Shown here: positions 2,637-32,000 of the stretch, piece after piece
Layout of the letters: every line of letters begins with the position of its first letter
Position numbering within the stretch: the first letter of the stretch is position 1
NCBI RefSeq assembly: GCF_000189295.2
Contig: NC_016803.1
Coordinates: forward strand, 1,950,001 to 1,982,000
Reading direction: 5' to 3'
Source of the DNA: Pseudodesulfovibrio mercurii
GTDB lineage: Bacteria; Desulfobacterota; Desulfovibrionia; Desulfovibrionales; Desulfovibrionaceae
Length of the DNA stretch: 32,000 nucleotides
Made by a program: the position numbers and the translations under genes
The notes under the pieces: generated by a model
The model's database searches: none
Told to the model about the DNA's origin: nothing
Seen by the model: the letters and a program-made list of their open reading frames with translations, nothing else

Positions 2637-3092
2637 GTGGCCCTGCGCATATGGGTGGACGCCGACGCCTGCCCCAACACGGTCAAGGAAATCCTGTTCA
2701 AGGCCGCCCTGCGCCGCCAAATCCCCATGACCCTGGTGGCCAACATGCCGCTACGCGTGCCGCCCTCCCCGCTCATCGAGACCATCCAGGTGGGCGCGGG
2801 CTTCAACGCGGCAGACGACGAGATCGCCCGCCGGGTCCAACCCGGCGACCTGGTTGTCACCGCCGACATCCCCCTGGCCGACGCCGTCGTGACCCGAGGC
2901 GCCACCGGCCTCAACCCGCGCGGCGAACTCTACACCGAAGACAACGTCAAGAGCCTCCTGCGCATGCGCAACCTCATGGAGGAACTGCGCTCCGCCAACC
3001 TCGCCCCCGGCGGCCCCGCCCCCCTCGGGTCCAAAGACAAACAACTCTTCACCAACCAACTCGACCGCTTCCTGACCAGGAATACGAAGTAG
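2637..3092 (+). CDS. yaiI: YaiI/YqxD family protein (UPF0178/DUF188)
   Basis: GTG start lies 2 nt after the ywbE stop, with GGGAGA upstream. N terminus IWVDADACP and internal GxxAADDxI...GDLVVTxDIPLA match the UPF0178 pattern. Confidence 0.75.
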   Translation: MALRIWVDADACPNTVKEILFKAALRRQIPMTLVANMPLRVPPSPLIETIQVGAGFNAADDEIARRVQPGDLVVTADIPLADAVVTRGATGLNPRGELYTEDNVKSLLRMRNLMEELRSANLAPGGPAPLGSKDKQLFTNQLDRFLTRNTK

Positions 3093-3158
3093 GATGCCTC
3101 CGGGCCTCCAGCCGTTGGCGAGTCTTCGAGCCTTACGGATGAGGACAGCAGCGATCGG

Positions 3159-3214
3159 CCGGGGGAAGGGGAGGAAAAACCCTTTGAAAAGGGTTTTTCC
3201 TCCCCTTCCCCCGG
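3159..3214. repeat. Perfect 26-bp-stem palindrome with TGAA loop (REP-like element)
   Basis: I paired it base by base: 3159-3184 is the exact reverse complement of 3189-3214. The core AACCCTTT..AAAGGGTT is shared with the palindrome at 31646-31675. Confidence 0.9.
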
Positions 3215-3333
3215 ACCCCCATCCCCTCCTTTTCCCAAACTCTTTGTCGCCGCTTCGCGGGGAGGGTTGCAGCTTCACCGCCTTCGCCCAATAAACCGAC
3301 CGGAAGCCCCCTCTTCCCTCTTCCTGGAGCGTT

Positions 3334-3362
3334 TCGGGTGCGCAGCACCCGACAGCGGCTCT
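3334..3362 (+). repeat. Hairpin module TCGGGTGC-GCA-GCACCCGA followed by CAGCGGCTCT
   Basis: The same module occurs in inverted orientation at 28981-29011. Confidence 0.8.
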
Positions 3363-3400
3363 TCTTCGCCGCACCTCCGTCCTCGGAAGCCGCTTCACAC

Positions 3401-3430
3401 AAAAAAAGCCCGGTCTCCAAGAGACCGGGC
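3401..3430 (-). terminator. Rho-independent terminator downstream of roo
   Basis: Minus strand reads GCCCGGTCTC-TTG-GAGACCGGGC followed by T7, starting 25 nt after the roo stop. Confidence 0.85.
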
Positions 3431-3454
3431 CTTGATTGCATAATGAGAAGGAGA

Positions 3455-4657
3455 CTAGAAGCCCCACTTCGCCTTGATCGCGGCGGCGATCTGCTTGCCC
3501 TGCTCGTAGCACTTGCCGAGCACTTCATGGTCGGGCACATACTGGTTCTTGACCGGCTCGACCATCTCCATGCCCATGTCCTCGAGCCACTGGGTCAGGA
3601 TCTTGACGCATTCGCCGGACCAGCCGAAGGAGCCCACGGCGGAACCGATCTTGTTCTGGGGGCGCAGACCCTTCATGTAGGTCAGCATGTCGCCCATGAG
3701 CGGCAGGATGCCGTTGTTGTGGGTCGGGGACCCGACGACCACGGCGGCCGCGTCGAAGACCTCGGCCATGACGTCGGAGTGGTGGTTGTTCTTCATGCAC
3801 ATGACGCGCACGGACACGCCCTCGTCGGCCAGGCCCGCGGCGACGGCCTCGGCCATCTTCTCGGTGGAGTGCCACATGGTGTCGTAGACGATGACCGCCT
3901 TGTTCTTGGGCTTCTGCTCGGCGTACCCCTGGTACGTCTCCATGACCCAGTTGCAGTCGTCGCCCCGGAAGAGCAGGCCGTGGTCCGGGCAGATGGTGTC
4001 GATCTCCAGCCCCATCTCCTTGATGGCGGCCAGGGTCTTGAGCACCACCGGGGAGTACGGCAGGACGATGTTGGCGTAGTAGTTGGCCATGAGCTCTTCC
4101 AACCGGTAGCGGTCCACCTGGTCGGCCCAGCGCTCGGAAGTGGCCCAGTTCTGGCCGAAGGCGTCGTTGGTGAAGACGATCTTGTCCTCCGGGCAGTAGG
4201 TCAGCATGGAATCGGGCCAGTGCAGCATGCGGGTCTCGACAAAGGAGAGGGTCCGCGCGCCGATCTTGATCTCGGTGCCGGTGGGCACGACCTCCACGGG
4301 CCAGTCCGTGTACTTGAAGTGGGCCTTCATGGCCTTCTGGCCCATGGGCGAGGTGTAAACCTTCTCGGGCTGGTATTTCTCCACGACCTTGGCCAGGCAG
4401 CCGGAGTGGTCGGGCTCGAGGTGGTTGGCCACCACGTAGTCGATCTTCCGGTCGCCGAGCACCTGGGCGATGTTGCACTGCAGGGTGCCCCAGAATCTCT
4501 CGTCCACGGTATCGATCAGGGTCACCTTCTCGTCCACGATCAGAAAATTATTGTAGGTGGTGCCCTTGTGCGCCTTGGAATAGCCGTGGAAGTCGCGACG
4601 GTTCCAGTCCACCGCGCCCAGCCAGTAAATGCCCTTCTTGATTTCAACAGGTCTCAT
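3455..4657 (-). CDS. roo: Rubredoxin:oxygen oxidoreductase (flavodiiron protein, class A)
   Basis: Similar from end to end to my memory of D. gigas ROO: DWNxRDFHGY, HLEPDHSG, MLHWPDSM, WHSTEKMA, GSPTHNNGILP, GSFGWSGE. ATG at 4657 has GGAGAAG 6 nt upstream, so I prefer it to the GTG at 4669 in the ORF track. Confidence 0.93.
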   Translation of the reverse strand: MRPVEIKKGIYWLGAVDWNRRDFHGYSKAHKGTTYNNFLIVDEKVTLIDTVDERFWGTLQCNIAQVLGDRKIDYVVANHLEPDHSGCLAKVVEKYQPEKVYTSPMGQKAMKAHFKYTDWPVEVVPTGTEIKIGARTLSFVETRMLHWPDSMLTYCPEDKIVFTNDAFGQNWATSERWADQVDRYRLEELMANYYANIVLPYSPVVLKTLAAIKEMGLEIDTICPDHGLLFRGDDCNWVMETYQGYAEQKPKNKAVIVYDTMWHSTEKMAEAVAAGLADEGVSVRVMCMKNNHHSDVMAEVFDAAAVVVGSPTHNNGILPLMGDMLTYMKGLRPQNKIGSAVGSFGWSGECVKILTQWLEDMGMEMVEPVKNQYVPDHEVLGKCYEQGKQIAAAIKAKWGF

Positions 4658-4696
4658 GGTCTTCTCCACATTGAGCGGTTGCTCAACCGCTATGGT

Positions 4697-4730
4697 AAAA
4701 AAAGGAGCGCGAACCGTGGGTGCGCGCTCC
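4697..4730 (-). terminator. Rho-independent terminator between rubredoxin ORF and roo
   Basis: Minus strand reads GGAGCGCG-(11-nt loop)-CGCGCTCC followed by T7. A second 7-bp hairpin (4674-4691) sits just before the roo SD. Confidence 0.7.
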
Positions 4731-4753
4731 CTGGCCGCTGGTCGGGCCGAAAA

Positions 4754-4915
4754 TTAACCCTCGGGTACGAAGCTGTCCTTGCCCGCACCACAGACCGGAC
4801 AGGTCCAGTCGTCCGGCAGGTCCTCAAACTTGGTCCCGGCCGGGATGTCGGCATCGGAATCACCCTCGGCGGGGTCGTAAACATAGCCACAAATCTCGCA
4901 CACGTATTTCTGCAT
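4754..4915 (-). CDS. rub: Alternative product: stand-alone 53-aa canonical rubredoxin from an internal start
   Basis: The internal ATG at 4915 is preceded by AAGGAG with a 9-nt spacer. The 53-aa length is that of a classical Desulfovibrio rubredoxin. Confidence 0.45.
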
Positions 4916-5203
4916 GGGATCGGTCTCCTTTTGGACTTGTATTTTTGCAGCAGCGGCGGCCGCTGTCAACTTCTTGGGGTCGGTTTCAACGGGCAATTCA
5001 CAATCCGTCCGGGTCGAACCCGGACCGGCCAGGGGGCGGAAACACTTCTTGGTGCCCCCGCAGATGGGACAGCGCCAGTCGTCCGGCAGGTCCTCGAACC
5101 GGGTGCCCTTGGGGATCTTGCCCTTCCGGTCGCCCTTGTCCGGGTTGTAGATATAGCCGCAGTTCACGGTTTGGCACTGATACATCTCTTCGGGCAGGGC
5201 CAT
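4754..5203 (-). CDS. rub: Tandem rubredoxin ORF: N-terminal CX4C...CX2C (type-II-like) rubredoxin domain, 38-aa linker, C-terminal canonical rubredoxin
   Basis: A single 149-aa ORF with no in-frame stop. Domain 1 is [14 protein letters not shown]...[10 protein letters not shown]. Domain 2 is [12 protein letters not shown]...[22 protein letters not shown] lies upstream of the ATG at 5203. Confidence 0.65.
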
Positions 5204-5219
5204 GTCGCCTCCCTGGGGG

Positions 5220-5247
5220 AAAAGGGGCGGGCCTTGCGGCCCACCCC
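5220..5247 (-). terminator. Terminator/attenuator-like hairpin between dfx and the rubredoxin ORF
   Basis: Minus strand reads GGGGTGGGCC-GCAA-GGCCCGCCCC (one G-T wobble) followed by TTTT then C-run. The short T tract makes this weaker than the other terminators. Confidence 0.4.
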
Positions 5248-5295
5248 GGGGTGTCTCTCACGCGCGCCCTGCGGCGTCGCGGCACAGGGGATCGC

Positions 5296-5685
5296 CTACG
5301 CGGAGGCGGTCCACAGACCGTGAATGTTGCAGTACTCGCGGGCCTTGAGCGGGCCGGACAGGCCGCAGATGCAGAATTCGGCCTCGGGCTTCTCGCCGGG
5401 CTTGAGCATCTTGGTCAGGACCACGTCGCCCACCTGGAGCTCGATCCACTCGATGTAGTGCTTCTCCTCCATGGGATGGGCCACGGAACCGACCTTGACG
5501 GTGACCTTGTCGCCGTCCTTCTCGATGACGGGGACGTGCTTTTCCTTGGCGGCGTCCACAGTGTTTTCGGTCATCTGGACCATCTCCTCGCCGCAGCAGA
5601 CCAGGCTGCCGCCGCCTTCGTGAATGGCCATGACGATGTTGCCGCAGATATTACACTTGTACACTTCGCCCAGTTTGATAGCCAT
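5296..5685 (-). CDS. dfx: Desulfoferrodoxin (2Fe superoxide reductase)
   Basis: N-terminal desulforedoxin motifs are CNICGN and LVCCGE. The neelaredoxin domain shows [28 protein letters not shown] and [16 protein letters not shown] lies upstream of the ATG. Confidence 0.93.
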
Positions 5686-5713
5686 GTCGAATCCTCCTTG
5701 GATGACGTAAAAA

Positions 5714-6286
5714 TTACCAGTTGGTGTCCTTGATCTCGAAATGGGCCTGGGGATGGTCGCAGGCCGGGCACTTCACGGGAGCGGTGGTGCCCCTGTGATT
5801 GTAACCGCAGTTCTGGCAGCGCCAGACGATCTCCTCGTCCTTGGAAAAGACGCGGTCGGTCTCGATGTTCTTGATGAGGGCCTTGTAGCGCTCCTCATGG
5901 TACCGCTCGGCCACGGCGATGTTCTCCATGACCGCGGCGATCTCGTTGAAACCCTCCTGGCGCGCGATCTTGGCGAACCCGGGGTACATCTCGGTGTTCT
6001 CCTCGTGCTCGCCGGCCGCGGCGGCCTTGAGGTTCTCCAGGGTGTTGCCGATGACCCCGGCGGGGAAGGTGCCGGATACCTCGGCGGTGCCGCCCTCCAG
6101 GAACTTGAACAACCGCTTGGCGTGTTCCTTCTCGTGTCCGGCGGTCTCCTCGAAAATCTTGGAAATCTGCACGTAGCCCTCTTTCTTGGCCACGCTGGCG
6201 TAGTAGGTATACCGGTTGCGGGCCTGGGACTCGCCGGTGAATGCATACATCAGGTTCTTCTCGGTCTGGGTTCCTTTCAGGGACAT
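5714..6286 (-). CDS. rbr: Rubrerythrin
   Basis: Ferritin-like diiron domain ([37 protein letters not shown]) plus a C-terminal rubredoxin-like CQNCG...CPACDHP. ATG at 6286 has AAGGAGG 5 nt upstream and gives 190 aa. I reject the 6334 start in the ORF track. Confidence 0.92.
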
Positions 6287-6446
6287 TATTCCTCCTTGTG
6301 GAATGGATCCTTGGTGTTCCGATTCAGATGCCACCGTACACGAAAACAGGGGGCTTGTCGCATTATTCCGTGAGAAGGTGTTGCGTCTTTCGTTCTTTCA
6401 TCGTTTATCCTGGCGGCGCATTGGCTTATTGCCAAGATGGGAATTA

Positions 6447-6475
6447 TTACTAATTATAAACCCGCTCCCTGTCAA
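6447..6475 (-). promoter_or_regulatory. Putative sigma70 promoter of rbr (TTGACA-N17-TAGTAA) overlapped by an AT-rich PerR/Fur-type box
   Basis: The minus strand has TTGACA (6475-6470), a 17-nt spacer and TAGTAA (6452-6447). The imperfect palindrome ATTATTA-C-TAATTAT (6443-6457) covers the -10. The perR promoter has the same architecture. Confidence 0.5.
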
Positions 6476-6496
6476 GCGATGTGCGGGCCATAGAAT

Positions 6497-6533
6497 CAAA
6501 AAATAAAGCCGGTTGCCCCGAGAGGCAACCGGC
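6497..6533 (-). terminator. Rho-independent terminator downstream of perR
   Basis: Minus strand reads GCCGGTTGCC-TCTCGG-GGCAACCGGC followed by TTTATTTTTTG. Confidence 0.85.
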
Positions 6534-6567
6534 CTTGCGCCGCGGATGCGGATATTTTCCGAAATGT

Positions 6568-6966
6568 CTATTGCCGCGCGGCCTGGCACTTGGGGCAGAT
6601 GCCCACGAATTCCACGTTGGTGGTCAGGATCTTGAAGCCGCCGGCGCAGCTCTCCGGGATGTCCGGGATGTCGATGTCGCACTCCACGTCCACCACGGCC
6701 GTGCAGATCTCGCAGCGGATGTGCGGATGCGGCTCAGGAGTGCCGTCGAACCGTTTCTGCTCGCCGGGCGCACCCAGCTTGAGGACCAGTCCCTTGGAGG
6801 ACAGGAACTCGAGATTCCGGTACACGGTGCCCAGGCTGATCCTGGGAATGATCTTGCGCACCATGTCGTAAACCTCGTCGGCCGTGGGGTGCGTCTTCAC
6901 TTTCCGCAACTCTTCCAATATCACTTTCCGCTGCTTGGAAAGCCTGAAACCCATTTCCTGAGCCAT
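6568..6966 (-). CDS. perR: Fur-family transcriptional regulator, probably peroxide-responsive PerR
   Basis: A winged-helix region (RKVILEEL...HPTADEVY...ISLGTVYRNLEFL) is followed by two CXXC pairs, CEIC and CPKC. ATG at 6966 has GGAGG 6 nt upstream. The PerR call comes from adjacency to rbr, as in D. vulgaris perR-rbr. Confidence 0.8.
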   Translation of the reverse strand: MAQEMGFRLSKQRKVILEELRKVKTHPTADEVYDMVRKIIPRISLGTVYRNLEFLSSKGLVLKLGAPGEQKRFDGTPEPHPHIRCEICTAVVDVECDIDIPDIPESCAGGFKILTTNVEFVGICPKCQAARQ

Positions 6967-6991
6967 GGACGTCCTCCATATTTGATAACAA

Positions 6992-7020
6992 TTACTATTC
7001 CCCTGGTCCATTCTTGTCAA
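6992..7020 (-). promoter_or_regulatory. Putative sigma70 promoter of perR (TTGACA-N17-TAGTAA) with overlapping AT-rich operator-like sequence
   Basis: The minus strand has TTGACA (7020-7015), a 17-nt spacer and TAGTAA (6997-6992). GAATAGTAATTGTTATCAAAT spans the -10 and the likely start site. Confidence 0.5.
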
Positions 7021-7163
7021 GAGGAATCCGTGCAGGCGGAATCATGGCGTATTAGCCCAGAAAACAAAATACTGCAAATGGTCCGGTTGTGTCGACCGCA
7101 GTACCTTTGATTTGCTGGACAAGTTACGCCCGTCACGGACGGCGCGCCGCGCCCGGAGCAGGG

Positions 7164-7189
7164 AAAAGGGCCCGGCCGAAGCCGGGCCC
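7164..7189 (-). terminator. Rho-independent terminator downstream of the MCP gene
   Basis: Minus strand reads GGGCCCGGC-TTCG-GCCGGGCCC followed by TTTT. Confidence 0.75.
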
Positions 7190-7206
7190 CGTCATGCGTT
7201 GGGCCG

Positions 7207-9228
7207 CTAGTCGCGGAACTTGGAAACCAGTTCGGCCAGTTCCCCGGCCAGTTCCGAGACCTCCTGGATACCCCGGTTGGACTCGCGGATGCCGGACAGG
7301 ACCTCCTGGGAGAGGTGGTTGATCTGGGTCACGCGCGTGTTGATCTCGTCCGAGGTGGAGGACTGCTGTTCCGCCGCGGTGGCGATGCCGTTGACCATGT
7401 CGGCGATGGAGTTGGAGTGCCTGACGATCTCGTCGAGCACGCCGCCCGCCTCCTGGGCCATGCCCGAGGTGTTCAGGACCCGCTTCTTGGCGGTGTCCAT
7501 CTCCTTGACCACGTCCGTGGTGGACTGCTGGATGAGCGAGATGGCCCCCTCCACCTCCTTGGTGGCGTCCATGGTCTTCTCGGCCAGCTTGCGGACCTCG
7601 TCCGCGACCACGGCGAAGCCTCGGCCGGCCTCGCCCGCGCGGGCCGCCTCGATGGCCGCGTTGAGCGCCAGCAGGTTGGTCTGGTCCGCGATGTCGTTGA
7701 TCACGGCCATGACCTTGCCGATGTTCTCGGCCCGACTGGACAGGGAGGCCAGAGCCTCGGCCAGGTGTTCGGTGATGTCGGCCACGGAGTTGATCTCCTC
7801 CACGGTCTTGCCCACCACCACGCCGCCCGAGGCGGCCACCTTGTTGGCCTGGTCCGAGGCCTCGGCGGTCTCGGCGGCGTTCTTGGCCACCTCCAGCACC
7901 GTGGCGTTCATCTCCTCCATGGCCGTGGCCACCTGGCTGGTCTGGTCGGCGGTGGTGTCCACCCCGCTGGCCAGCTGGTCCATCCGGGTGGACAGCACGT
8001 TGGAGGCCTCGTTGAGCCTGTTGGCCACCTGGGTGACCTCGTTGGCCACTTCCAGGAGGCTCTGGCGCTGGAGTTCGATGCTCTTCTTGTCCTCCTCCTC
8101 GCGGGTCAGGTCGATGAGCACGCAGATGACGCCCACGGTCTCACCCTCGGCGTCCTTGAGCGGCGAGGCCTCGAACAGGAGCGGGAAGGTGGTGCCGTCC
8201 CGGCGGGTGAACAGGAAACGCCCGTTGAGGGGTTCGCCCAGGGCGATGACCTCGCCCGCGTTGCAGGCGGAACCGTCCTCGGACTCGCAGGCGAAAACCT
8301 CGGCCACGGCACGGCCCTTGAGCTCGTCCTCGGTCAGGTCCAGGATGGCCTGGAGGGGCGGGTTGACGAATTGCAGAGTCTGTTTGGCGTCGGTCACGAA
8401 CAGCGGGACCACGATGCCGCCGAGTACGCTCTGGTTGTATTCGAGCTGGTCCTTGATCTGGTTGACCATGGCCCCCAGGTAGCGGGACAGGGAGCCGAGC
8501 TCGTCGGACCCGGACACGGTGAACTGGGCGTCCAGGTTGCCGTGGGCCACGTCCTTGGCCGTGGTGGCGATGGAGGTGATGCGGTTGACGATGGCCTTGC
8601 GCATGAAGATGATCAGCGCGGCCAGCAGGGCCAGGACCCCGAGCAGGGAGATGCCCGCGGACTTGAACTGGTTGTCCTTGAGCGCGCCGTACTGCGGGCT
8701 GATGTCCACGGCCACGACCATGGCCCCGAGAATCTCCCGGCTGCGTCCATGGCAGTGGTAGCAGAACGGGTTGTTCCCGATGGACTTGACCTCCACGAAG
8801 TGGCGCTTGCCGCCGACCTCCTCCATCTTGCCCTCGGCCACCTTCTCCTCGAGCCCCCGGGCCACAAGGTCGGGCAGTCCGGCCTCGGGCATGACCTCGA
8901 AGATCTTCTTGCGCTCGGCCTCGGTCTCCGTGGAATAGGTGATCTCGCCCTTGTAGTCGGTCAGGTAGACCTGGATGTCCGGATAGCGCTCGGCCATCTG
9001 GAGGAACTTGATCTCCGTGCCCTCGTTGTCGCCCTTGGCCATGGGGTCCTCGATGGCGATGTAGAGCATGTCCGCCACCCGCTCCGCGGCCACGGCCACC
9101 TCATGCAGGGTGTGGTCCTTGGTCGTGATGGAGGTGTAGGCGAACAGCCCGGCAAAGGCCAGGATGGTCAGCAGGGACGAGAGCAGGATGAGTTTGACGC
9201 CCAGCGAGCGCGTGATGAAATTGTCCAT
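7207..9228 (-). CDS. dcrA: Methyl-accepting chemotaxis protein with periplasmic c-type haem motif, HAMP and cytoplasmic PAS domain (DcrA-like)
   Basis: Two TM segments flank a roughly 170-aa periplasmic domain carrying CYHCH (nt 8749-8763). After TM2 comes a HAMP-like segment, then a PAS-like segment. The C-terminal MCP signalling domain includes EQTNLLALNAAIEAARAGEAGRGFAVVADEVRKLAE. The size (673 aa) and haem motif resemble D. vulgaris DcrA. Confidence 0.85.
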   Translation of the reverse strand: MDNFITRSLGVKLILLSSLLTILAFAGLFAYTSITTKDHTLHEVAVAAERVADMLYIAIEDPMAKGDNEGTEIKFLQMAERYPDIQVYLTDYKGEITYSTETEAERKKIFEVMPEAGLPDLVARGLEEKVAEGKMEEVGGKRHFVEVKSIGNNPFCYHCHGRSREILGAMVVAVDISPQYGALKDNQFKSAGISLLGVLALLAALIIFMRKAIVNRITSIATTAKDVAHGNLDAQFTVSGSDELGSLSRYLGAMVNQIKDQLEYNQSVLGGIVVPLFVTDAKQTLQFVNPPLQAILDLTEDELKGRAVAEVFACESEDGSACNAGEVIALGEPLNGRFLFTRRDGTTFPLLFEASPLKDAEGETVGVICVLIDLTREEEDKKSIELQRQSLLEVANEVTQVANRLNEASNVLSTRMDQLASGVDTTADQTSQVATAMEEMNATVLEVAKNAAETAEASDQANKVAASGGVVVGKTVEEINSVADITEHLAEALASLSSRAENIGKVMAVINDIADQTNLLALNAAIEAARAGEAGRGFAVVADEVRKLAEKTMDATKEVEGAISLIQQSTTDVVKEMDTAKKRVLNTSGMAQEAGGVLDEIVRHSNSIADMVNGIATAAEQQSSTSDEINTRVTQINHLSQEVLSGIRESNRGIQEVSELAGELAELVSKFRD

Positions 9229-22643: not shown

Positions 22644-23449
22644 TCAGGCCGGGCGGTCGCCGTCCACCACGGACGCGGCCCCGCGCAGGCGCACGTACCA
22701 GGCAGCGCCCACGGCCCAACCCAGGACGGACACGCCGCACTGGACCGGAAGATGGAGCCACCGGGCATAGAATTCGGTGACCGGGCTCATGGGAGCCGCG
22801 GTGTGCGGGATATCCATGGGCAGCCGCCGGGCCGCCCACCACAGCAGCGCCGTCAGGAACAACGTCCCGGCGACCGGGCGCGACAATGCCCAGGAGCGCC
22901 GAAAGGACACGCGGTCCCCCACGGCCGCGCCCGCCAGGGTGAACCCGAAGCGGACGAGCAGGTGCAGCAGCGGCATGGCCGCCAGGTGGTAGGAGGCGGC
23001 CCAAAGCGGATAGACGTTCATGTCGAACAATGGCCCGGCCAGCCACTGCACACCCCGGCCGAGCAGTCCCCAGGCCTGGTCGAAGCAGAGATAATAACAG
23101 AAGGCGTAGGGCAGCGCCCGCAGGAACCGACGCGAAAAGTCCGGACAAAAAAACCGACGCTCCCCCTCCCCGTGCAGCACGGCGTTCGCCACGACCACGA
23201 GCAGGCCCAGGTGCAGCAACATCCTCAGTATGGACCACGACCGGCCGCCACGGAGAGCGGAACCCCGGTCATTCGCTCCAACGGCACCAGCTTGAAGGCG
23301 AGCGCCCACAGGTACAGACACGCGGCGCTCACGGCATAGAACGACGGGTCGGCCCGCAACCGTCCCGCAACCATGCAAAGGACCCCGCCGATCCGCCCCA
23401 GGGACGCCCGCCAGGCATCCTCGGCCTGCAGAAACCAGGGGATGGACAC
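22644..23449 (-). pseudogene. Membrane-protein paralog P4, apparently disrupted by a 1-nt frame change (or sequence error)
   Basis: The N-terminal third (GTG 23449; SIPWFLQAEDAWRASLG...) is in the frame of ORF 23225..23506. The rest (SILRMLLHLG...[11 protein letters not shown]) is in the frame of ORF 22644..23378. Both parts align with P1-P3. Confidence 0.6.
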
Positions 23450-23453
23450 GGGC

Positions 23454-24231
23454 TCAACCCCCTTCCGCCGGACTCGACGCCGCGTCTTCGCGGACCGCGA
23501 TGGCATACCACACGACCGTCAGGGCAAAGAGCGGCGGGACGAACAGGGAGGTCAGCAGGGAGAGGGCCACGGTCCAGGCCAGGGGGCCGGGGGAGGCGAA
23601 CCACTGCGCCATGCCCCAGTCCAGCCCCGCCAGCGGGGCGAAGGGCGCCCCCAGGAGAAGCAGCCCGGACAGCAGCATGGCCAGGCCCCGCCCATGAGTC
23701 AGCCGGAAGGACCGTTCGAGCGGCGACTTGCGCCCGTCCACCACGGCGGCCGGGACCAGAATGAGGCGCAGGGCCAGCCAGACGGCGGGCAGGCAGGACA
23801 CGGCCGTGACCACCAGGCGCGTCCCGAACCCCACGTCGGCAAGGGGCGTGTCCAGGAACATCCCCAGGACCGCCATGCCCGCGAGGGTCAGAATGACGGC
23901 GAAGACGCCCACCAGGGCGAAGACCGCCGCCGAGTACAGCCCGTACAACAGGAACTTTTTTCAGGAACGCCCGCGGCAGACGGCGGGCGTCGCCCTCCCC
24001 GTGCAGCAGGGCGTGCAGGAGGGCCACCTCCACCGGTATGAGCAGGATGGAAAAGGGCAGGCCGTACACGAACCATTCCAGCAGGTCGGCATCGGGCCGC
24101 AGCCAGTCGAGGGAGTCCCGGACCAGGCCGATGGCGGCCAGAAGGAGAAACGGGACGAGCAGCAGCCGCCGGCGTTCGGCGAGGAGCGTGAGGGCGCGTC
24201 GCGCCGCGACCCACGGGGACGGATTCGTCAC
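23454..24231 (-). pseudogene. Membrane-protein paralog P3, frame change inside an A6 tract (or sequence error / +1 slippage)
   Basis: The N-terminal 89 codons (GTG 24231; MTNPSPWVAARRAL...RLPRAFLKK) then turn into Arg/Pro/Gly-rich nonsense. The +1 frame continues as FLLYGLYSAAVF...VVWYAIAVRE (ORF 23454..23948). The junction is the T6 run at 23956-23961 on the plus strand. Confidence 0.65.
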
Positions 24232-24234
24232 CGC

Positions 24235-25146
24235 CTACCTGTCCTCCGGCAGGTCCGCGTACGGCCCCACGCCCGCTCCGCGCGCCGGGCCGGGGGCGGT
24301 TCCGGGCTCGGCGGAGAACCGGAATGCGGCCCCGGAACCGACGCCCGGTGCGGCCGCGCGCAGGCGGAGCTTCTCGTACCAGACCGCGTTCATGACCAGC
24401 AGGACGATCCAGGAGAACAGGTCGAGGACCAGCAGGACCAGGAACGACACGGCGGTCCCCGCGCCGATCCCCCCGCCCCCGTCCTTCATGGCGGAACCGA
24501 TGACGGCGACCTCGAAGAGCCCGGTCAGGATCATGACCGGCAGGACCACGGTCAGCATGGACCAGAACATACGCCAGGCGTGGCCCCTGGTCAGGGCCAG
24601 GGCCTCGCGCACCCCAACCACGTGGCCCACGGCCGCGCCGGGGATCATGACCATGAGCCGCAGGATCAGGCCGACGACGAAGGCATAGACCACGACCCCC
24701 GCGACCATGAACAGCGCGAGCAGGGACGGGTTGAACCCGGCCGGATCGGCGGGATCGTGGGGCAGGACCGCATAGGCCACGGCCGCCAGCGGCACCCCGA
24801 CCGCGAGCATGACGCCGAACATGACGGCCACGATGATCAGGCCACGGACAAAGACGCGGCCCATGGCGGGCCAGAAGGGTTGCGGCAGGACCGTGCCCGC
24901 CCCCCGCTGCATGGTCACGGCCAGGTGGTTGGACGCGGTCATCAGGAAGAGCGTGACCAGGACGTGAAGGACCACGGACAGCGCCACGGCCGGGCCGTAC
25001 CAGGAACGCGCCAGCGCGGGCAGGACCGTGACCGTCGGCAGGAGCACCAGGCTGACCAGGAGCAGTCCGAGGAACGCCCATTTCCGCCTCCAGCTCAGGG
25101 CCACGGACTCCCTGACCACGGCCCACGGCGAGATCTTGTTCGACAT
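24235..25146 (-). CDS. Membrane-protein paralog P2 (six predicted TM segments, unassigned family)
   Basis: ATG at 25146 has GGAGGA upstream and lies 2 nt after the P1 stop. The product starts MSNKISPWAVV, contains ALTRGHAWRMFW and ends near WYEKLRLRAA. The longer listed ORF (to 25605) overlaps P1 and is Arg/Gly-rich there. Confidence 0.75.
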   Translation of the reverse strand: MSNKISPWAVVRESVALSWRRKWAFLGLLLVSLVLLPTVTVLPALARSWYGPAVALSVVLHVLVTLFLMTASNHLAVTMQRGAGTVLPQPFWPAMGRVFVRGLIIVAVMFGVMLAVGVPLAAVAYAVLPHDPADPAGFNPSLLALFMVAGVVVYAFVVGLILRLMVMIPGAAVGHVVGVREALALTRGHAWRMFWSMLTVVLPVMILTGLFEVAVIGSAMKDGGGGIGAGTAVSFLVLLVLDLFSWIVLLVMNAVWYEKLRLRAAAPGVGSGAAFRFSAEPGTAPGPARGAGVGPYADLPEDR

Positions 25147-25148
25147 GT

Positions 25149-25958
25149 CTATTCCTCCCCGGCGGTCTGTTGTTGCGCGTCCGTCGGCGTCCCGGCGGCG
25201 CGCAGGCGGAGCTTCTCGTACCAGATGATGAAGGCCGCGAAGGTGAACCACATCACGGCCGTGCCCGCGACCATGAACCCCAGGTTCGCGGGCGAGAATG
25301 GATCGAAGGTCCGGGCCTCCACGGCCGGGCCGTTGACGACCTGCATGGCCCCATTCAGGAGGAGGAACGGCAGGGTGAACAGGAGCATCCGCAGGGAATG
25401 GCCCCGGGTCATGCGCCAGGAGAGCCGGAAGGAGGACTCGTCGCCCATGACCGTTGCGGGCAGAACCGGCCACCAGCGCACCGAGAAAAAGGCCAGGGGC
25501 AGCATGACCGCCGCCACGGTGAGCAGGGTCATGGCGAAGGACGGCTCCGCCCCTTCCGGCGCAGGCCACAGGATGACCACCGCCGCCACCATGACGACCC
25601 CGCACAGCATGCCCGCCCCCATGACCATGAACATCAGCAGGAACCCCCGGCCCAGAAAGCGCAGGTACCGGCCGAGGAAATGGTCGGGCAACAGGCCGGG
25701 GCGTTCGCGCAGGGCCGACAGGGAGTCGTGCAGCACCACCACGTACACGGCCGCCCCCGCCAGCAGGGAGAGGAGCCAGACCGTCAGGGTGAGCCCGTTG
25801 AACGGTTGGGCGGGATCCACGGAACCGGAAAGATAGATCGAGGGCGCCCCGGCCGCGAGCACGCCCAGCGCCCCGCCCAGATAGACCCGCCCGCGCAACC
25901 GCATGAGCCGCAGGGCGTCCACGGCCACTTCCAGGGGCGATATCCTGTCTCCCGCCAC
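25149..25958 (-). CDS. Membrane-protein paralog P1 (six predicted TM segments, unassigned family)
   Basis: GTG at 25958 lies 6 nt after the Fe-S subunit stop, with AAGGTAGG upstream. The product starts MAGDRISPLEV, contains LSWRMTRGHSLRMLLF and ends near WYEKLRLRAA. Confidence 0.75.
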   Translation of the reverse strand: MAGDRISPLEVAVDALRLMRLRGRVYLGGALGVLAAGAPSIYLSGSVDPAQPFNGLTLTVWLLSLLAGAAVYVVVLHDSLSALRERPGLLPDHFLGRYLRFLGRGFLLMFMVMGAGMLCGVVMVAAVVILWPAPEGAEPSFAMTLLTVAAVMLPLAFFSVRWWPVLPATVMGDESSFRLSWRMTRGHSLRMLLFTLPFLLLNGAMQVVNGPAVEARTFDPFSPANLGFMVAGTAVMWFTFAAFIIWYEKLRLRAAGTPTDAQQQTAGEE

Positions 25959-25964
25959 AAGTAC

Positions 25965-27107
25965 CTACCTTATGGTTTCAAGCCAGTGGCCCACCTCCAC
26001 GCGGTCCGGGGCCGTGGCCGAGAGCTGGGCCAGACAGGCGGAGCAGCCCGAGAGGACCACGTCCGCACCCTTGAGCGCCTCCCAGCAGGCGCGGTTGACC
26101 GGTTCGGTCAGGCCGGGCGCGGCCAGGCGCATGACCCCGCCGAAGCCGCAGCACTGCTCGTCCGTAACCCTGACCAGCCGGTCGCCCAGGAGCGCCCGGA
26201 GCCAGGTCCGGTCCGGGTCGTCCTTGCCCGCGTGGCACGGGTGGTGGTAGCCGAGCCGGTCCGGTGCATTGTCGGATATCATAAATTCTATGCCCCGTAC
26301 AGCCACCGACAAGGGCAAAAGCGCCTGGTTCCACTGCGCCTTTTCCCCGTCGGACTCGAAGGCGTCGTAGGCCCGCAGCCCGGCCAGGCAGGAGGCGCAG
26401 AACACGGCCACGCGCGGCCGCCCGGCCTCGCGCCAGACCGCCACGTTGCGCCGGGCCATCTCCCCGGCCTCGTCCGCGAACCCGGCCCCCTTCAGCCCCG
26501 AGCCGCAGCAGGCGAAGTCGCCGGGCAGGACGTCCGCGCCCAGGCCGTCCAGCAGCCGCAGGGCGGCCGTGAGCCAGCGGCCCTGCACGTAGTTGGCCGT
26601 GCAGCCCGCGAACAGGAGCATGCGTTCGCCGCGCCAGTCGTCGGGGAAGGCCCTGGGCGTGAGGAAGGGATCGAGGCCCGGCCCGCCGGTCATGCCCGCG
26701 AGCATCTTGAGCATGGGCCCGAGCTTCTCGGTGCGGAACCGCTCGGGGATGAGCGCGGCGGCCTTGGAGCTGGGCGACCAGAGCTGGCGGGCGCGGGTCA
26801 GCCAGGTCTTCCACAGCCAGGACTTGAAATTCGGGTGCGCACCGCGCAGGGCGGCCACCAGGCCGGGCACGTCCTGACCCTGGGAGCAGACCTCGCGGCA
26901 CCGGCCGCAGCCCAGGCAGAGCCCGGCCAGCCGGGCGGCGTCGGTCTCGGACAGCTTGTCCGGGTCCTCGGCCAGGACCCGGCAGAGGTCGGACTTGGAA
27001 CGCGGCCCGAGTTCCTCGCGGCCCGTGGCCTTGAGCAGCGGGCAGGCCTGGAGGCACTTGCCGCACAGGATGCAGTGGGAGACGTGTTCGGAAACGGGGT
27101 CGGCCAT
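25965..27107 (-). CDS. (Fe-S)-binding oxidoreductase subunit, GlcF-like (two 4Fe-4S motifs plus CCG domains)
   Basis: Ferredoxin-type motifs are CILCGKCLQACP and CLGCGRCREVC. Cysteine-rich CCG-type segments are CCGSG, HHPCH and EQCCGFGG. The start lies 7 nt after the GlcD-like stop. Confidence 0.85.
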   Translation of the reverse strand: MADPVSEHVSHCILCGKCLQACPLLKATGREELGPRSKSDLCRVLAEDPDKLSETDAARLAGLCLGCGRCREVCSQGQDVPGLVAALRGAHPNFKSWLWKTWLTRARQLWSPSSKAAALIPERFRTEKLGPMLKMLAGMTGGPGLDPFLTPRAFPDDWRGERMLLFAGCTANYVQGRWLTAALRLLDGLGADVLPGDFACCGSGLKGAGFADEAGEMARRNVAVWREAGRPRVAVFCASCLAGLRAYDAFESDGEKAQWNQALLPLSVAVRGIEFMISDNAPDRLGYHHPCHAGKDDPDRTWLRALLGDRLVRVTDEQCCGFGGVMRLAAPGLTEPVNRACWEALKGADVVLSGCSACLAQLSATAPDRVEVGHWLETIR

Positions 27108-31481: not shown

Positions 31482-31645
31482 CAAGGGGGCGTGAAAGGGC
31501 GAGCGGGGAATGCCTCCGGCGGCCCCTTCGGGACGCCGCATGGCCGCGCACAGCCAGGCCCTCCACCAAGCAGCACCCAACCCAACCGGATGCCATCCCG
31601 CGTCCGCACGCCCCTGCCGAAGGCACACAAAAAGTTTGGGAGAGT

Positions 31646-31675
31646 CCAGAGAACCCTTTTCAAAGGGTTCTCTGG
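31646..31675. repeat. Perfect 14-bp-stem palindrome CCAGAGAACCCTTT-TC-AAAGGGTTCTCTGG (REP-like; related to 3159-3214)
   Basis: I checked the arms base by base. On the minus strand it is followed by TCCCAAACTTTTTGTG, which mirrors TTCCCAAACTCTTTGTC after the 3.2-kb palindrome. A second hairpin, CTGGGGC-AGC-GCCCCAG, follows at 31682-31698. Confidence 0.85.
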
Positions 31676-31742
31676 CGGGGCCTGGGGCAGCGCCCCAGCC
31701 GTCGGAGACGCCCGCCCGGCGAGGGCCCGCCGGAGGCTTCTT

Positions 31743-32000
31743 CTACTCCATGCCCTCGTCCACGAGCAGGCCTCTGCCCGAGGCGGCGCCTCTGGCCAGG
31801 TCGTCCACGCGTTCGTTGAGCAGGTGACCGGCGTGTCCCTTGACCCAGTGGAAGGTGACGTCGTGTTCTTCGATGAGGGGCATGAGCCGTTGCCAGAGGT
31901 CCTGGTTCTTGACCGGTTTCTTGGCGGCGGTTTTCCAGCCGTTGCGTTGCCAGTTCTTGAGCCAGCGTTGGGTGATGGCCTGCTGGACGTATTTGGAGTC
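31743..32000 (-). CDS. rnhA: Ribonuclease HI (3' part; 5' end outside window)
   Basis: It is not in the ORF track because it is truncated by the window edge. My reverse-complement translation reads ...[20 protein letters not shown]...[26 protein letters not shown]...DEGME, with the stop at 31743-31745. Confidence 0.85.

Follow-up and report, generated by a model that had tools for sequence, protein, structure and literature searches.

Intrastrand-triplex repeats, described under the names BoxC, PIT and TM-ECO, have been known in bacteria since the 1990s; to our knowledge, the triplex of the BoxC/PIT elements has never been shown to form in cells, and no function has been assigned to them. These elements, from E. 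coli and other Proteobacteria, are the closest known kind to the two loci described here, and the likeness extends to several properties: they are short, intergenic and multi-copy, without an associated gene; they contain purine and pyrimidine hairpin blocks, a 3-nt turn and a mirror block; they fall into two subtypes, often arranged as inverted pairs (A and B for TM-ECO, type A on the plus strand with type B on the minus strand here); and copies are deleted or mutated among relatives. They were described by Hoyne et al. (2000) and Hoyne & Maher (2002), both cited here as reported in PMC4666352, and by Holder et al. (2015, PMC4666352). Oligonucleotides with TM-ECO, BoxC and PIT sequences form stable triplexes in vitro and have been linked to local instability (PMC4666352); in vivo DMS footprinting of TM-ECO detected no triplex, the double-stranded DNA remaining duplex (PMC4666352). 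In the ITxF search definition the stem is homopurine/homopyrimidine, 6–15 nt long and has no more than one mismatch, and the loops measure 1–6 nt (PMC4666352).

Two palindromes with a common core and tail

The window, that is, the whole 32-kb stretch of DNA analysed, contains two loci (Table 1), whose palindromes are the best two perfect inverted repeats within it. Locus 1 (3159–3214) had been described in the initial annotation as a flawless 26-bp inverted repeat with a TGAA loop, and its 27-nt arms (3159–3185 and 3188–3214, with 2 nt between them) are indeed 100% complementary, equivalent to such a stem and loop in a type A copy; the 14-nt arms of locus 2 (31646–31659 and 31662–31675) are likewise 100% complementary. 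The sequence common to both palindromes is the 18-mer AACCCTTTGAAAAGGGTT, with a GA loop at locus 1 and a TC loop at locus 2, so that the minus strand of locus 2 carries the identical 18-mer, oriented as its tail. A common core had been claimed for the two palindromes, and AACCCTTTNNAAAGGGTT occurs exactly twice in the window (3178–3195 and 31652–31669), with no match in 100 shuffles. The shared tail, said to lie on the plus strand at locus 1 and on the minus strand at 31.6 kb, was likewise confirmed: within the window, TCCCAAACTNTTTGT is present only at 3233–3247 (plus) and 31627–31641 (minus), and the oriented tail common to both loci is CCCAAAC. Folded as DNA, locus 1 has an energy of −33.8 kcal/mol (z = −8.7); that of locus 2 is −13.4 kcal/mol (z = −6.2). 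Both loci lie between convergent genes, as first noted, and the annotations were confirmed: yaiI (NF001095/PF02639) and an FprA/Roo-type flavoprotein (roo) at locus 1, pncC/CinA and RNase H (rnhA; PF00075) at locus 2. The best homologue of the Roo protein of the window is 88% identical and occurs in Pseudodesulfovibrio-like organisms.

Table 1. Parts of the two loci and of the partial element, with positions in the window.
Feature	Position	Strand	Remarks
Locus 1 (type A)
5' box, part 1 (GCCTCCGG)	3096..3103	+	Starts 4 nt after yaiI stop TAG 3090–3092
52-nt inserted unit (GCCTCCAGCCGTTGGCGAG...GACAGCAGCGAT) splitting the 5' box	3104..3155	+
5' box, part 2 (CGG)	3156..3158	+	Sequence read, family consensus
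Perfect palindrome, 26-bp stem and TGAA loop	3159..3214	+	Inverted-repeat search, DNA fold
All-purine 5' arm (R block) GGGGGAAGGGGAGGAAAAA	3161..3179	+	19 nt
Apex 18-mer AACCCTTTGAAAAGGGTT; 7-bp mixed stem and TGAA loop	3178..3195	+	Conserved
All-pyrimidine 3' arm (Y block) TTTTTCCTCCCCTTCCCCC	3194..3212	+
Turn GGA	3213..3215	+	Mirror repeat with 3-nt spacer
Putative third strand CCCCCATCCCCTCCTTTT	3216..3233	+	Mirrors 3195–3212 at 17/18 positions
Tail CCCAAAC, then TCTTTGT	3234..3247	+	Tail co-varies with apex pyrimidine half in variants
3' mini-hairpin CGCCGCTTCGCGGGG (CCGC/GCGG stem, TTC loop)	3248..3262	+
Locus 2 (type B)
5' box GCCTCCGGCGG	31727..31737	−	5 nt past rnhA stop codon 31743–31745
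Hairpin A, CTGGGGC-GCT-GCCCCAG	31682..31698	−	Sequence, DNA fold
GCCCCG, mirror (putative third-strand) segment of hairpin A	31676..31681	−
Apex hairpin (CCAGAG + 18-mer + CTCTGG)	31646..31675	−
Linker ACTCT (31641–31645) and tail CCCAAAC (31634–31640)	31634..31645	−
TTTTTGTGT and 3' mini-hairpin GCCTTCGGC	31616..31633	−
Partial element
Second exact 5' box and CCCCTTCGGG hairpin	31512..31532	+	30 nt after pncC stop

The 5' box of the family has the consensus GCCTCCGGCGG and abuts the hairpin directly; removal of the 52-nt unit from locus 1 restores this consensus, as GCCTCCGG, CGG and CCGGGGG joined. Related units with the GACAGCAGCGAT motif are also present inside a type B copy of L030, at a site where the D. 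caledoniensis orthologue has no such unit, and elsewhere in the yaiI–roo spacer of L121. At locus 1 the putative third strand complements the purine arm in parallel orientation, and 3195–3233 is the sole combination of mirror repeat and hairpin of at least 10 nt in the window; the 3' mini-hairpin is found in most type A copies. Similarity of locus 2 to other type B copies spans 31593–31726. The partial element lies opposite this type B copy and faces it, and the same 5' box with CCCCTTCGGGG is also present in L026. With about four or five canonical triples, locus 2 would by itself be a weak triplex candidate.

The remark that no T tract flanks the palindrome holds directly after the stem but not beyond the tail, where most family members have TTTTT and where the T-rich stretch reads CTCTTTGT at locus 1 and TTTTTGT at locus 2. 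The distance from stem to T-rich stretch, 18 + 7 nt, is not that of an intrinsic terminator, and a terminator scan of 2900–3600 called only the roo terminator (3433–3405, minus strand) and none at the element. A promoter reading was rejected: no −10 hexamer comes after the TTGAAA of the apex, and nothing resembling a promoter was called; nor do the sequences fit the consensuses of a sigma-54 promoter, attC, dif or a DNA-uptake sequence. A search for tRNA and tmRNA gave none. A candidate third repeat at 7570–7704 was also discarded, being a conserved MCP signalling domain.

Co-variation of hairpin, mirror strand and tail

The initial annotation gave spacers of 17 and 4 nt between palindrome and tail. 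The lengths do differ, but what had appeared to be a variable gap repeats the stem in mirror order, tracking it in both length and sequence: the spacer mirrors the 3' arm of the hairpin, which makes it complementary, in parallel orientation, to the purine 5' arm. Core and tail lie about two arm lengths apart (r = 0.97, slope 1.78), t − 2j is −1 or 0 in 49/69 copies, and linkers lengthen with their stems over the range of 1 to 27 bp. Across copies, many of which are akin by descent, 424 of 503 mirror-strand positions are parallel-complementary, compared with 359 ± 8 for swapped linkers, 289 ± 8 for shuffled linkers and 276/486 for the reversed linker; when each of 10 arm families was represented once, the score was 101 against 73.9 ± 5.7, and none of 5000 permutations reached it. 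The letter code was G to C in 304/328 cases, A to T in 176/217 (A to A in 26) and T to A in 11/13. Counting pairs in a fixed register gave 88.3% and 96.7% complementarity, compared with 72.2% and 87.4% after shuffling (0/500), values that were best or near-best at zero slide.

The hairpin itself is constrained too, with 98.7% of cells paired in the family alignment and all eight variable pairs changing on both sides (38 cells, compared with 11.5 ± 2.8 in shuffles). Stem mismatches comprise three G.T and four A.C, and this lack of a G.T excess fits a constraint at the DNA level. The mirror rule also holds in hairpin A and in a different hairpin of P. sediminis. In 19 copies of hairpin A, arms ending in GGGC go with CCCG and those ending in GGGAC with CCCTG, giving a score of 109 against 94 ± 3.3 with swapped spacers, a value reached in none of 2000 swaps. 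A short member of the family reads GCGAGAGGGGA-apex-TCCCCTCTCGC-G-CTCTCCCCTT-CCCAAAC.

The third partner in the co-variation is the tail. Read by eye, the apex variants CCTTTT (three copies), CCTCTT (two) and CCCTTTT (two) have the tails CCAAAAC, CCAGAAC and CC(C/T)AAAAC, respectively, and CTTTTT and CTTTT go with TCAAAAAC and TCAAAAC; against this matching, three copies with a CCTTTT apex keep CCCAAAC. The register requires one A to be skipped at the purine-to-pyrimidine junction, and the CCC run of the tail lies opposite C-G pairs, where the mirror rule predicts G.

These controls bear on the suggestion that the locus is a REP-like palindrome or cruciform of the ordinary kind beside a protein-binding motif, its mirror symmetry being a by-product of G/A versus C/T low complexity, which we consider very improbable. 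Purine- or pyrimidine-rich arms that are in part self-symmetric do inflate mirror scores, so that even the reversed linker still reaches 57%, and the apex is a perfect dyad, AACCCTTT-GA-AAAGGGTT, of the kind used by dimeric DNA-binding proteins. However, shuffles, copy swaps and the family permutation all fall far below the observed values, linker length follows that of the stem, apex variants come with matching tails, and stems that are not of low complexity obey the rule as well (GCGAGAGGGGA, TTTGAGGGGGAA, CTTA with AAT, GGGAC with CCCTG). The controls have thus largely refuted this explanation.

A G-quadruplex or i-motif element is hardly credible. The bottom strand of locus 1 does read GGGG-AT-GGGGG-TCC-GGGGG-AA-GGGG, with four C-runs on the top strand at 3202–3226, and G-rich triplex motifs are readable as G-quadruplex motifs too (PMC4666352); but most arm families have just one G-run per arm, hence two per strand (GCGAGAGGGGA, TTTGAGGGGGAA, CTGGGGGG), locus 2 has none, and a G-quadruplex requires neither the interspersed A/T nor the co-variation of apex and tail. 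For TM-ECO, NMR favoured the triplex over the G-quadruplex (PMC4666352).

Spread, position at gene ends and local instability

Family copies, gathered by exact match to the 18-mer in reference genomes, number at least 132 on at least 120 stretches. Among the matches listed are Desulfovibrionaceae, Armatimonadota, Clostridia, Omnitrophota and Nitrospira, at least five phyla, a taxon spread that, like the conservation of the apex, refers to the matches listed and is biased by the exact-18-mer collection. The element, non-coding and about 60–130 bp long, is oriented, with the tail on the 3' side in 103/134 copies and on the other side in two (matches listed, window included), and types A (plus) and B (minus) form inverted pairs in L048, L095 and L052. 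Relatives carry dozens of copies per genome. At least 16 copies coincide with genuine contig ends in assemblies of short reads; the elements break such assemblies.

Proximity to gene ends was measured for 64 copies as the presence of ORF ends within 150 nt, with random positions as the control. A sense ORF ends no more than 150 nt upstream of 44/64 copies (69%), and a convergent ORF no more than 150 nt downstream of 34/64 (53%), compared with 25% of random positions. The fully convergent setting is found in 22/64 copies, so that the question of whether copies always occur at convergent gene ends is answered in the negative. All-against-all clustering of 372 ORFs within 3 kb of at least 100 copies found no recurrent neighbour protein or transposase; where copies lie close together, the ORFs between them are housekeeping genes, URO-D and a TIM-barrel protein.

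The position after sense genes is one reason to ask whether the element acts as RNA, as a triple helix (U.A-U, C+.G-C) in the 3' UTR that would protect the mRNA end or promote termination at ACUUUUU, a bacterial counterpart of ENE/MALAT1 and of stabilization by REPs; purine arm, pyrimidine arm and Hoogsteen strand would be co-transcribed with the upstream gene. At both loci and in many relatives, a co-directional gene precedes the element, which begins 4–30 nt past its stop codon, the sense side is the more frequent (69% versus 53%), yaiI has no canonical terminator, a T run usually follows the tail, and pyrimidine-motif intrastrand triplexes can form in RNA (PMC4666352). Nevertheless, we judge this reading quite unlikely. 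About 8/48 copies lie directly after the T-run of a canonical terminator, beyond the end of the transcript; orientation is loose, some Armatimonadota copies being antisense to the nearest gene and a convergent gene end being nearly as common (53%); the stem mismatches show no excess of the G.U over the A.C type; the purine third-strand bases of the apex–tail segment (AAA, AGAA) are those of the purine motif, and RNA is reported to be excluded from that motif (PMC4666352); and PIT elements showed no terminator activity in E. coli (PMC4666352). Rfam 15 gave no family match in the window at the gathering threshold, matches below it being to generic hairpins (miRNA precursors) and far under the cut-off.

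In the comparison of presence and absence in relatives, as had been proposed, orthologous sites are occupied or have lost the hairpin alone, and small insertions are seen. In the L123 orthologue the hairpin is deleted, while the box, third strand and tail are kept; the window and L121 differ by rearrangement of the flanking blocks; and insertions of 52–54 nt are present in the window and in L030. In sulfate reducers, in gut Clostridia and in several candidate phyla, the elements mark hot spots of small rearrangement at the ends of genes.

Spread and instability could also be those of a non-autonomous MITE- or REP-like element, mobilized as single-stranded DNA by an enzyme acting in trans that would recognize the apex hairpin and cut within or beside the tail, in the way that the HUH/Y1 transposases of IS200/IS605 or RAYTs treat a hairpin and its neighbouring short motif; the triplex rule would then merely keep the tail beside the hairpin. 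The identical 18-mer and tail in at least five phyla with lineage-specific flanks suggest horizontal spread, and the high copy number, the polymorphism of small inserted units, the weakly complementary ends (CCTCCG..CGGC and GCCG..CGGAGG) and the sharp 5' boundary at GCCTCCGGCGG, which in many cases immediately follows a terminator T-run or a stop codon, would all agree with mobility. We nonetheless think it unlikely, given the lack of any transposase or recurrent protein within 3 kb of at least 100 copies, of a target-site duplication in the 11 type A copies aligned, and of a clean empty site for the whole element among the orthologous sites compared. The plasmid collection gave no match for the element, and viral contigs three hits, one of them a genuine copy.

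A proposed intrastrand triplex repeat and its relation to known elements

Taken together, both loci are copies of a small, dispersed, non-coding DNA repeat lodged just past gene ends and probably of the triplex type, acting at the DNA level and selfish or neutral. In this family a turn of 1–3 nt and then a mirror copy of the 3' arm come after each hairpin; under this rule one strand could fold into a hairpin plus third strand, and so into an intramolecular triple helix. Locus 1 represents the long-stem form (19-nt purine arm, apex hairpin, pyrimidine arm, GGA, 18-nt mirror strand and CCCAAAC) and locus 2 the short-stem form, which has another small module of hairpin plus mirror on its upstream side. 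The tail would be that part of the third strand lying along the conserved apex stem, and the variable stem with its mirror linker may serve as a self-compensating spacer, holding the tail beside the apex at any stem length. As is thought for BoxC/PIT of E. coli, the element would most likely act at the DNA level, folding when the DNA is single-stranded or supercoiled, stalling polymerases and making its surroundings unstable; such a structure-prone repeat would be essentially selfish or neutral, tolerated at gene ends. We infer that a triplex may form in cells, and we are similarly guarded about the strand that would form it and about a host benefit, if any. Formed from the top strand, the third strand would be rich in C and so need cytosine protonation.

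A bolder reading, which we put forward tentatively, is that the repeats are a previously undescribed, cross-phylum, modular family, that their three-way co-variation (5' arm, 3' arm and third strand, with a strand switch at the conserved apex) is evolutionary evidence of triplexes formed and selected in vivo, and that apex and tail dock an unknown, widely distributed structure-specific protein, perhaps a transposase or nuclease. A literature search with sequence strings returned nothing relevant. If this reading were true, the elements would reveal in vivo selected triplexes of a kind that the experiments on E. coli BoxC/PIT could not show, and the docking role of the invariant apex and tail would make them a new class of mobile or regulatory DNA. 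The many independent stem sequences and lengths with matching mirror strands, together with the apex variants and their matching tails, offer evidence that is hard to obtain from the E. coli elements, by the same logic of co-variation that established RNA secondary structures; should it hold, the triple helix would be a selected feature and directly testable.

Several other known systems resemble the family in part. As in the REP/BIME sequences of Enterobacteria and Pseudomonas, the copies are short extragenic palindromes in high number (at least dozens per genome) at 3' gene ends and between convergent genes, with alternating orientation inside clusters. The initial label of a dispersed REP/BIME-type family is right in that the repeats are dispersed, oriented, composite, sited at gene 3' ends and frequently in inverted A/B pairs, but no GTAG-type 5' motif was seen, no RAYT or other recurrent gene lies within 3 kb of the copies, and REPs have neither a mirror third strand nor a co-varying tail. 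MITEs such as Correia, RUP and Nezha are likewise under 200 bp, non-coding, dispersed and structured, with weakly complementary ends; here, by contrast, neither a target-site duplication nor a related autonomous IS was found, and conservation falls on an internal part (apex and tail) rather than on the ends. In the ENEs of PAN and MALAT1 a downstream pyrimidine strand also clasps a stem, and a position at the transcript 3' end would fit, but ENEs use a U-rich internal loop with a poly(A) or A-rich tail. An H-DNA motif is present at locus 1 only, where 3195–3233 is a polypyrimidine mirror repeat of 18 + 18 nt with a 3-nt spacer (3195–3212, GGA, 3216–3233), as H-DNA classically requires; as a difference from H-DNA, this tract takes part in an inverted repeat as well, so that three strands could come from a single DNA strand, and the rule runs through mixed-sequence stems too.

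Because the spacer tracks the stem, we place the element with the BoxC/PIT repeats and not with plain cruciform or terminator palindromes. Locus 1 has the three-block PIT/ITxF motif (3161–3179, 3194–3212 and 3216–3233, 17/18 mirrored), and hairpin A, with 7 bp and loops of 3 and 1 nt, lies within the ITxF size definition. A 14–18-nt apex hairpin in place of a loop and a 19-nt stem lie outside it, and the CCAGAG of locus 2 is not homopurine; with its limits on loops (1–6 nt) and stems (6–15 nt), an ITxF search would miss the type A form. There is no sequence similarity to TM-ECO, whose consensus, CCCTCNCCC N3-6 GGGNGAGGG N3 GGGNGAGGG, has no match in the window. The order of blocks also differs, being pyrimidine, purine, third strand (class II) in TM-ECO and, in the present family, third strand, purine, pyrimidine on the G-rich strand (class I) or purine, pyrimidine, third strand on the C-rich strand (class III). 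The first 'loop' of the present family is a conserved 14–18-nt mixed-sequence hairpin read by the tail, which would entail a switch of the recognized strand. Finally, stems range from 0 to 27 bp compared with a fixed 9 in TM-ECO, the 5' box, hairpin A and 3' mini-hairpin are additional modules, and the family is spread over several phyla, whereas TM-ECO belongs to the Proteobacteria only.

The two palindromes and their repeat family

The palindromes described in the initial annotation were recovered with the same geometry. At locus 1, the long-stem (type A) copy between yaiI (NF001095/PF02639) and the FprA/Roo flavoprotein gene, two 27-nt arms, 100% complementary and 2 nt apart, form a 26-bp stem with a TGAA loop; at locus 2, the short-stem (type B) copy between pncC/CinA and the RNase H gene rnhA (PF00075), the arms are 14 nt each and perfectly complementary. 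The flanking genes are those named earlier, and the best match to the window Roo in the protein collection was 88% identical, the host being a Pseudodesulfovibrio-like sulfate reducer. A window-wide search placed the two loci as the top two perfect inverted repeats of the window, the roo terminator being the sole other convincing hairpin, and folding as single-stranded DNA gave −33.8 kcal/mol (z = −8.7) for locus 1 and −13.4 kcal/mol (z = −6.2) for locus 2. In the window, AACCCTTTNNAAAGGGTT occurred at these loci alone, with 0 matches in 100 shuffles. The two loop bases differ, with GA in the first locus and TC in the second, so that the minus strand of locus 2, the strand of its tail, carries the identical 18-mer, AACCCTTTGAAAAGGGTT; the tail pattern TCCCAAACTNTTTGT was likewise found at both loci and at no other site in the window, bearing out a common core with a tail on the same relative strand.

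Taken in tail orientation, a copy from the Desulfovibrionaceae begins with a 5′ box, GCCTCCGGCGG, followed in type B alone by hairpin A (stem-GCT-stem) and a short C-rich segment. Then come the main hairpin, with an invariant apex and a variable extension of 0–27 bp, a turn of 1–3 nt, the linker, the tail CC(C/T)AAAC with TTT(TT) after it and, usually, a mini-hairpin, CCGCTTCGCGG or TCGCCTGCGGCGA. Clostridial copies are the minimal form of the element, made up of hairpin A, apex hairpin, 1–2 nt and CCTAAACTTTA. The 5′ box of locus 1 is interrupted by a 52-nt insertion, removal of which restores GCCTCCGG+CGG+CCGGGGG; that of locus 2 is intact, 5 nt past the rnhA stop. A second exact 5′ box, with a CCCCTTCGGG hairpin, faces the type B copy 30 nt past the pncC stop; this element is partial, without the apex hairpin, and the same box-plus-hairpin start occurs in L026, a locus from another genome.

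Copies were gathered by exact match to the 18-mer in one genome per species, so that all counts are lower bounds and conservation of the apex is overstated. At least 120 DNA stretches matched, and a pattern of this length is expected to give roughly 20 matches by chance in the whole collection. Among the matches listed, window included, YYYAAAC[T/G] lay within 80 nt of the core on one side in 103 of 134 cases and on the other in 2 of 134. The dispersed family proposed earlier is thus a real, oriented and widespread one. BLAST of the window against the family loci delimited the repeated units and revealed further variant-apex copies in the same loci. The element matched no Rfam family, tRNA or tmRNA, and clustering of 372 neighbouring ORFs, among the matches listed, gave no recurrent neighbour protein; the genes between nearby copies are housekeeping genes.

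Features of the window and of loci from other genomes (L-numbers)
Feature	Location	Strand	Remarks
~52-nt unit	window 3104-3155	+	…GGCGAG-TCTT-CGAGCC…GACAGCAGCGAT
Related ~52-nt unit	L030 about 4594-4647		in hairpin A of a P. karagichevae copy
Related ~52-nt unit	L121 about 4330-4400		yaiI-roo spacer
Type A repeated unit	window about 3156-3267		
Locus 1 arms	window 3159-3185 / 3188-3214	+	
Hairpin plus mirror	window 3195-3212 / GGA / 3216-3233		
Tail pattern, locus 1	window 3233-3247	+	
roo intrinsic terminator	window 3405-3433	-	canonical; GCCCGGTCTC-TTGG-AGACCGGGC, then TTTTTTT; none on yaiI side
Oxidative-stress cluster	window about 3455-7110		MCP, Fur, rubrerythrin, desulfoferrodoxin, rubredoxin(s), Roo; order conserved, synteny in three relatives (L121-L124); DUF2196-YaiI convergent
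Rejected repeat candidate	window 7570-7704		78-89% identical to three other loci; conserved signalling domain of a methyl-accepting chemotaxis protein gene
Strongly positive AT skew	window 23000-26000		+0.29 to +0.46 over ~3 kb at 68-71% GC
Partial element	window 31512-31532	+	
Type B repeated unit	window 31593-31726		
Tail pattern, locus 2	window 31627-31641	-	
Locus 2 arms	window 31646-31659 / 31662-31675		
rnhA stop codon	window 31743-31745		
Type A/type B pairs	L048 2680-3020; L095 4610-5040; L052 1-280	+ / -	tail-to-tail, between convergent genes
Nitrospira MAG copies	L110 9-26; 160-177	+; -	tail-to-tail, ~130 nt apart, long palindrome between tails
Roseburia MAG tandem repeats	L003 about 7545-7660; L063 about 7150-7235		GAATTAAAGAGA-like units, before element

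The linker as a mirror of the stem

The 17-nt and 4-nt spacers between palindrome and tail had been read as a variable gap. In a comparison of copies, the linker instead mirrored the stem in both length and sequence: it is the 3′ arm reversed, which makes it complementary, in parallel orientation, to the purine-rich 5′ arm. In the window, 5′ arm, 3′ arm and linker are GGGGGAAGGGGAGGAAAA, TTTTCCTCCCCTTCCCCC and CCCCCATCCCCTCCTTTT; other sets, in the same order, are GCGAGAGGGGA, TCCCCTCTCGC and GCTCTCCCCTT; TTTGAGGGGGAA, TTTCCCCTCAAA and CTCCCCTTTT; TCGAGAGAGGGGAGAAGG, TCCTTCTCCCCTCTCTCGA and GCTCTCACCCCTCATCCT; and TTGGAGAA, TTCTCCAA and ACCTCTTT. Core and tail are separated by about two arm lengths (r = 0.97, slope 1.78); of 69 distinct copies among the matches listed, 49 show a difference of −1 or 0 from that value. 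Between 5′ arm and linker, the rule G to C and A to T was obeyed at 424 of 503 aligned positions, compared with 359 ± 8 for linkers swapped between copies, 289 ± 8 for shuffled and 276 of 486 for reversed linkers; by letter, G was read as C in 304/328, A as T in 176/217 (as A in 26) and T as A in 11/13. Many copies are related by descent, and this kinship is addressed by taking one representative of each of 10 arm families, which scored 101 against 73.9 ± 5.7, a value reached by 0 of 5000 permutations.

Parallel column pairs, counted at one fixed register across all 30 sequences, gave a similar picture. The two sets of pairs held complementary letters in 88.3% and 96.7% of cases, against 72.2% and 87.4% in shuffles (0/500); cells with changes on both sides numbered 20 and 16, compared with 7.8 and 5.8. 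Of the two sets, the first (four pairs) peaked clearly at zero slide; in the second, the percentage paired was about as high at +1 to +3, from fewer pairs. The Watson–Crick hairpin was 98.7% paired, all 8 variable pairs having changes on both sides, and its few mismatches were symmetric (A/C 4, G/T 3). A window-wide scan for a hairpin followed by its mirror found the locus 1 structure alone, the remaining matches being 8–9 nt and GC-rich.

The same rule extends to hairpin A, where GGGAC at the end of an arm is followed by CCCTG and GGGC by CCCG, the C count tracking the G count; the score was 109 versus 94 ± 3.3, and none of 2000 swaps attained it. In P. sediminis, the 5′ box precedes a different hairpin, CCAAAGGAC-AT-GTCCTTTGG, and then AATCCTTG. 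An altered apex also goes with a correspondingly altered tail. Apex pyrimidine halves CCTCTT (L081, L117), CCCTTTT (L043, L079), CTTTTT (L083), CTTTT (L017) and CCTTTT (L030, L106, L119) accompany tails CCAGAAC, CC(C/T)AAAAC, TCAAAAAC, TCAAAAC and CCAAAAC, respectively, the exception being three CCTTTT copies that retain CCCAAAC, with one uncompensated position. At one orthologous site all three strands differ between D. caledoniensis and P. karagichevae: arms CCAAAG/CTCTGG versus CCTAAG/CTTAGG, linker ACTCT versus AATCT, apex CCCTTT versus CCTTTT and tail CCTAAAC versus CCAAAAC. Judged by these variants, the CCCAAACT tail is no motif in its own right and is the mirror-strand stretch opposite the conserved apex stem. 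Because the stem extension and its mirror cancel, the tail always stays beside the apex, hence its position at 17 nt from the stem where that has 26 bp and at 4 nt where it has 13 bp.

Slippage gives rise to direct repeats and template switching to inverted repeats, and neither yields mirror symmetry. Such symmetry is the defining requirement of H-DNA and intrastrand triple helices (PMC4666352). On background triplex chemistry, in part from the introduction of that paper and including the reported exclusion of RNA from the purine motif, the top strand, in which the purine arm is followed by the pyrimidine arm and then by a pyrimidine third strand, would belong to class III (pyrimidine motif), its triples being C+.G-C and T.A-T and its third strand lying parallel to the purine arm. 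The bottom strand (purine third strand, purine arm, pyrimidine arm) would belong to class I (purine motif), its triples being G.G-C and either A.A-T or T.A-T. At the apex the purines move to the opposite arm and the third-strand letters switch too, T-A being read by A and an isolated C-G by G, as expected under the purine motif when the third strand runs antiparallel to that arm; we infer that the element may form an alternate-strand triple helix. Three features fit poorly: one A at the purine-to-pyrimidine junction is without a partner, the commonest register being a shift of 1; the C-run of the tail faces C-G pairs, for which the mirror rule would call for G; and at some A-T pairs the reading base is A, not T. 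We regard the element as a potential intrastrand-triplex repeat, for which a triplex in cells is predicted. Comparative evidence for a triple helix is seldom as clean as this three-way co-variation, which can be tested directly.

Gene ends, spread and local instability

With gene positions taken from ORF heuristics (ORFs ending within 150 nt of a copy), a sense ORF of at least 100 codons ended upstream of 44, and a convergent ORF downstream of 34, of 64 copies among the matches listed, against 25% for random positions; both ends occurred together in 22 of these 64. Convergent gene ends, the setting remarked at both window loci, are thus not universal. The 5′ box commonly starts 5–30 nt past a stop codon. 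In the tail-to-tail type A/type B pairs, each copy begins right after the terminator or stop of its own gene.

The explanation we think probable is a structure-prone repeat tolerated at gene ends and acting at the DNA level, in which the fold of hairpin plus third strand would be the selected feature, and stalled polymerases and local instability its consequences. A triple helix at RNA 3′ ends seems unlikely, as in about 8 of 48 cases among the matches listed the 5′ box begins directly behind a canonical terminator's T-run, which is hard to reconcile with a purely RNA role.

Copies of the 18-mer occur in Desulfovibrionaceae (at least nine in P. karagichevae, at least eight in D. caledoniensis, also in Maridesulfovibrio and several MAGs), in one Armatimonadota MAG, SKW107 (at least 30), and, among the matches listed, in gut Clostridia (including the isolate Lachnospiraceae B68), Omnitrophota, UBP15 and Nitrospira. 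Movement of the element in single-stranded form, by an enzyme reading apex and tail, would account for this spread across phyla and is compatible with the DNA-level explanation; we think it rather unlikely. In front of many SKW107 copies (loci L012, L032, L034, L037, L045, L093, L113 and L115 are from this MAG) stands a further conserved hairpin, GGGGGAACCCC-GCTTTTTGCCCAAA-GGGGGGTTCCCCC, perhaps an extra module specific to the lineage.

The yaiI-roo spacer varies among relatives. In L121 (Roo 88% identical) a type A copy follows the yaiI stop immediately, and both its arm and its linker differ from those of the window; in L123 (Roo 85%) the whole palindrome is gone and the box, third strand, tail and mini-hairpin are kept; and in P. 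sediminis the arrangement is different. A short block, GATGAGGACAGCAGCGAT, lies on opposite hairpin sides in the window and L121. It is part of the ~52-nt unit, which is also inserted in hairpin A of a P. karagichevae copy and is missing from the D. caledoniensis ortholog of that copy; this looks like a second small insertion-prone unit landing in or beside these elements. In short-read assemblies, at least 16 copies are found no more than 40 nt from a true contig end, as expected of repeated long palindromes.

Comparison with known repeats

No earlier description of the family was found by text or sequence search. Of the REP/BIME reading in the initial annotation, dispersal, location and copy number stand; the defining REP/RAYT features are lacking here as far as testable, and the reading is sharpened to a potential intrastrand-triplex repeat. 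The family failed the test for a MITE target-site duplication, and the element does not have the intrinsic-terminator pattern.

The nearest known kind is the BoxC/PIT element of E. coli, TM-ECO; the present family operates in the manner of these elements and is, by sequence, not a member. TM-ECO, with the consensus CCCTCNCCC-N3-6-GGGNGAGGG-N3-GGGNGAGGG, is intergenic, multi-copy and not tied to mobile elements; CD and NMR show it as a stable triplex in vitro, with none detectable in vivo, and it is without promoter or terminator activity (PMC4666352). Its consensus was not matched in the window. The block order differs between the two, and in place of the 3–6-nt loop of TM-ECO the present family has a long structured apex; unlike TM-ECO, it also has a variable stem length, extra modules and a range over several phyla. 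The published triplex-motif search was limited to loops of 1–6 nt and stems of 6–15 nt (PMC4666352), limits that the type A form would escape. The type A (+)/type B (−) pairs resemble the A and B types of TM-ECO, which are paired in inverted orientation, and the small deletions, insertions and rearrangements seen here are of the kind reported around TM-ECO, with which local instability is associated (PMC4666352).
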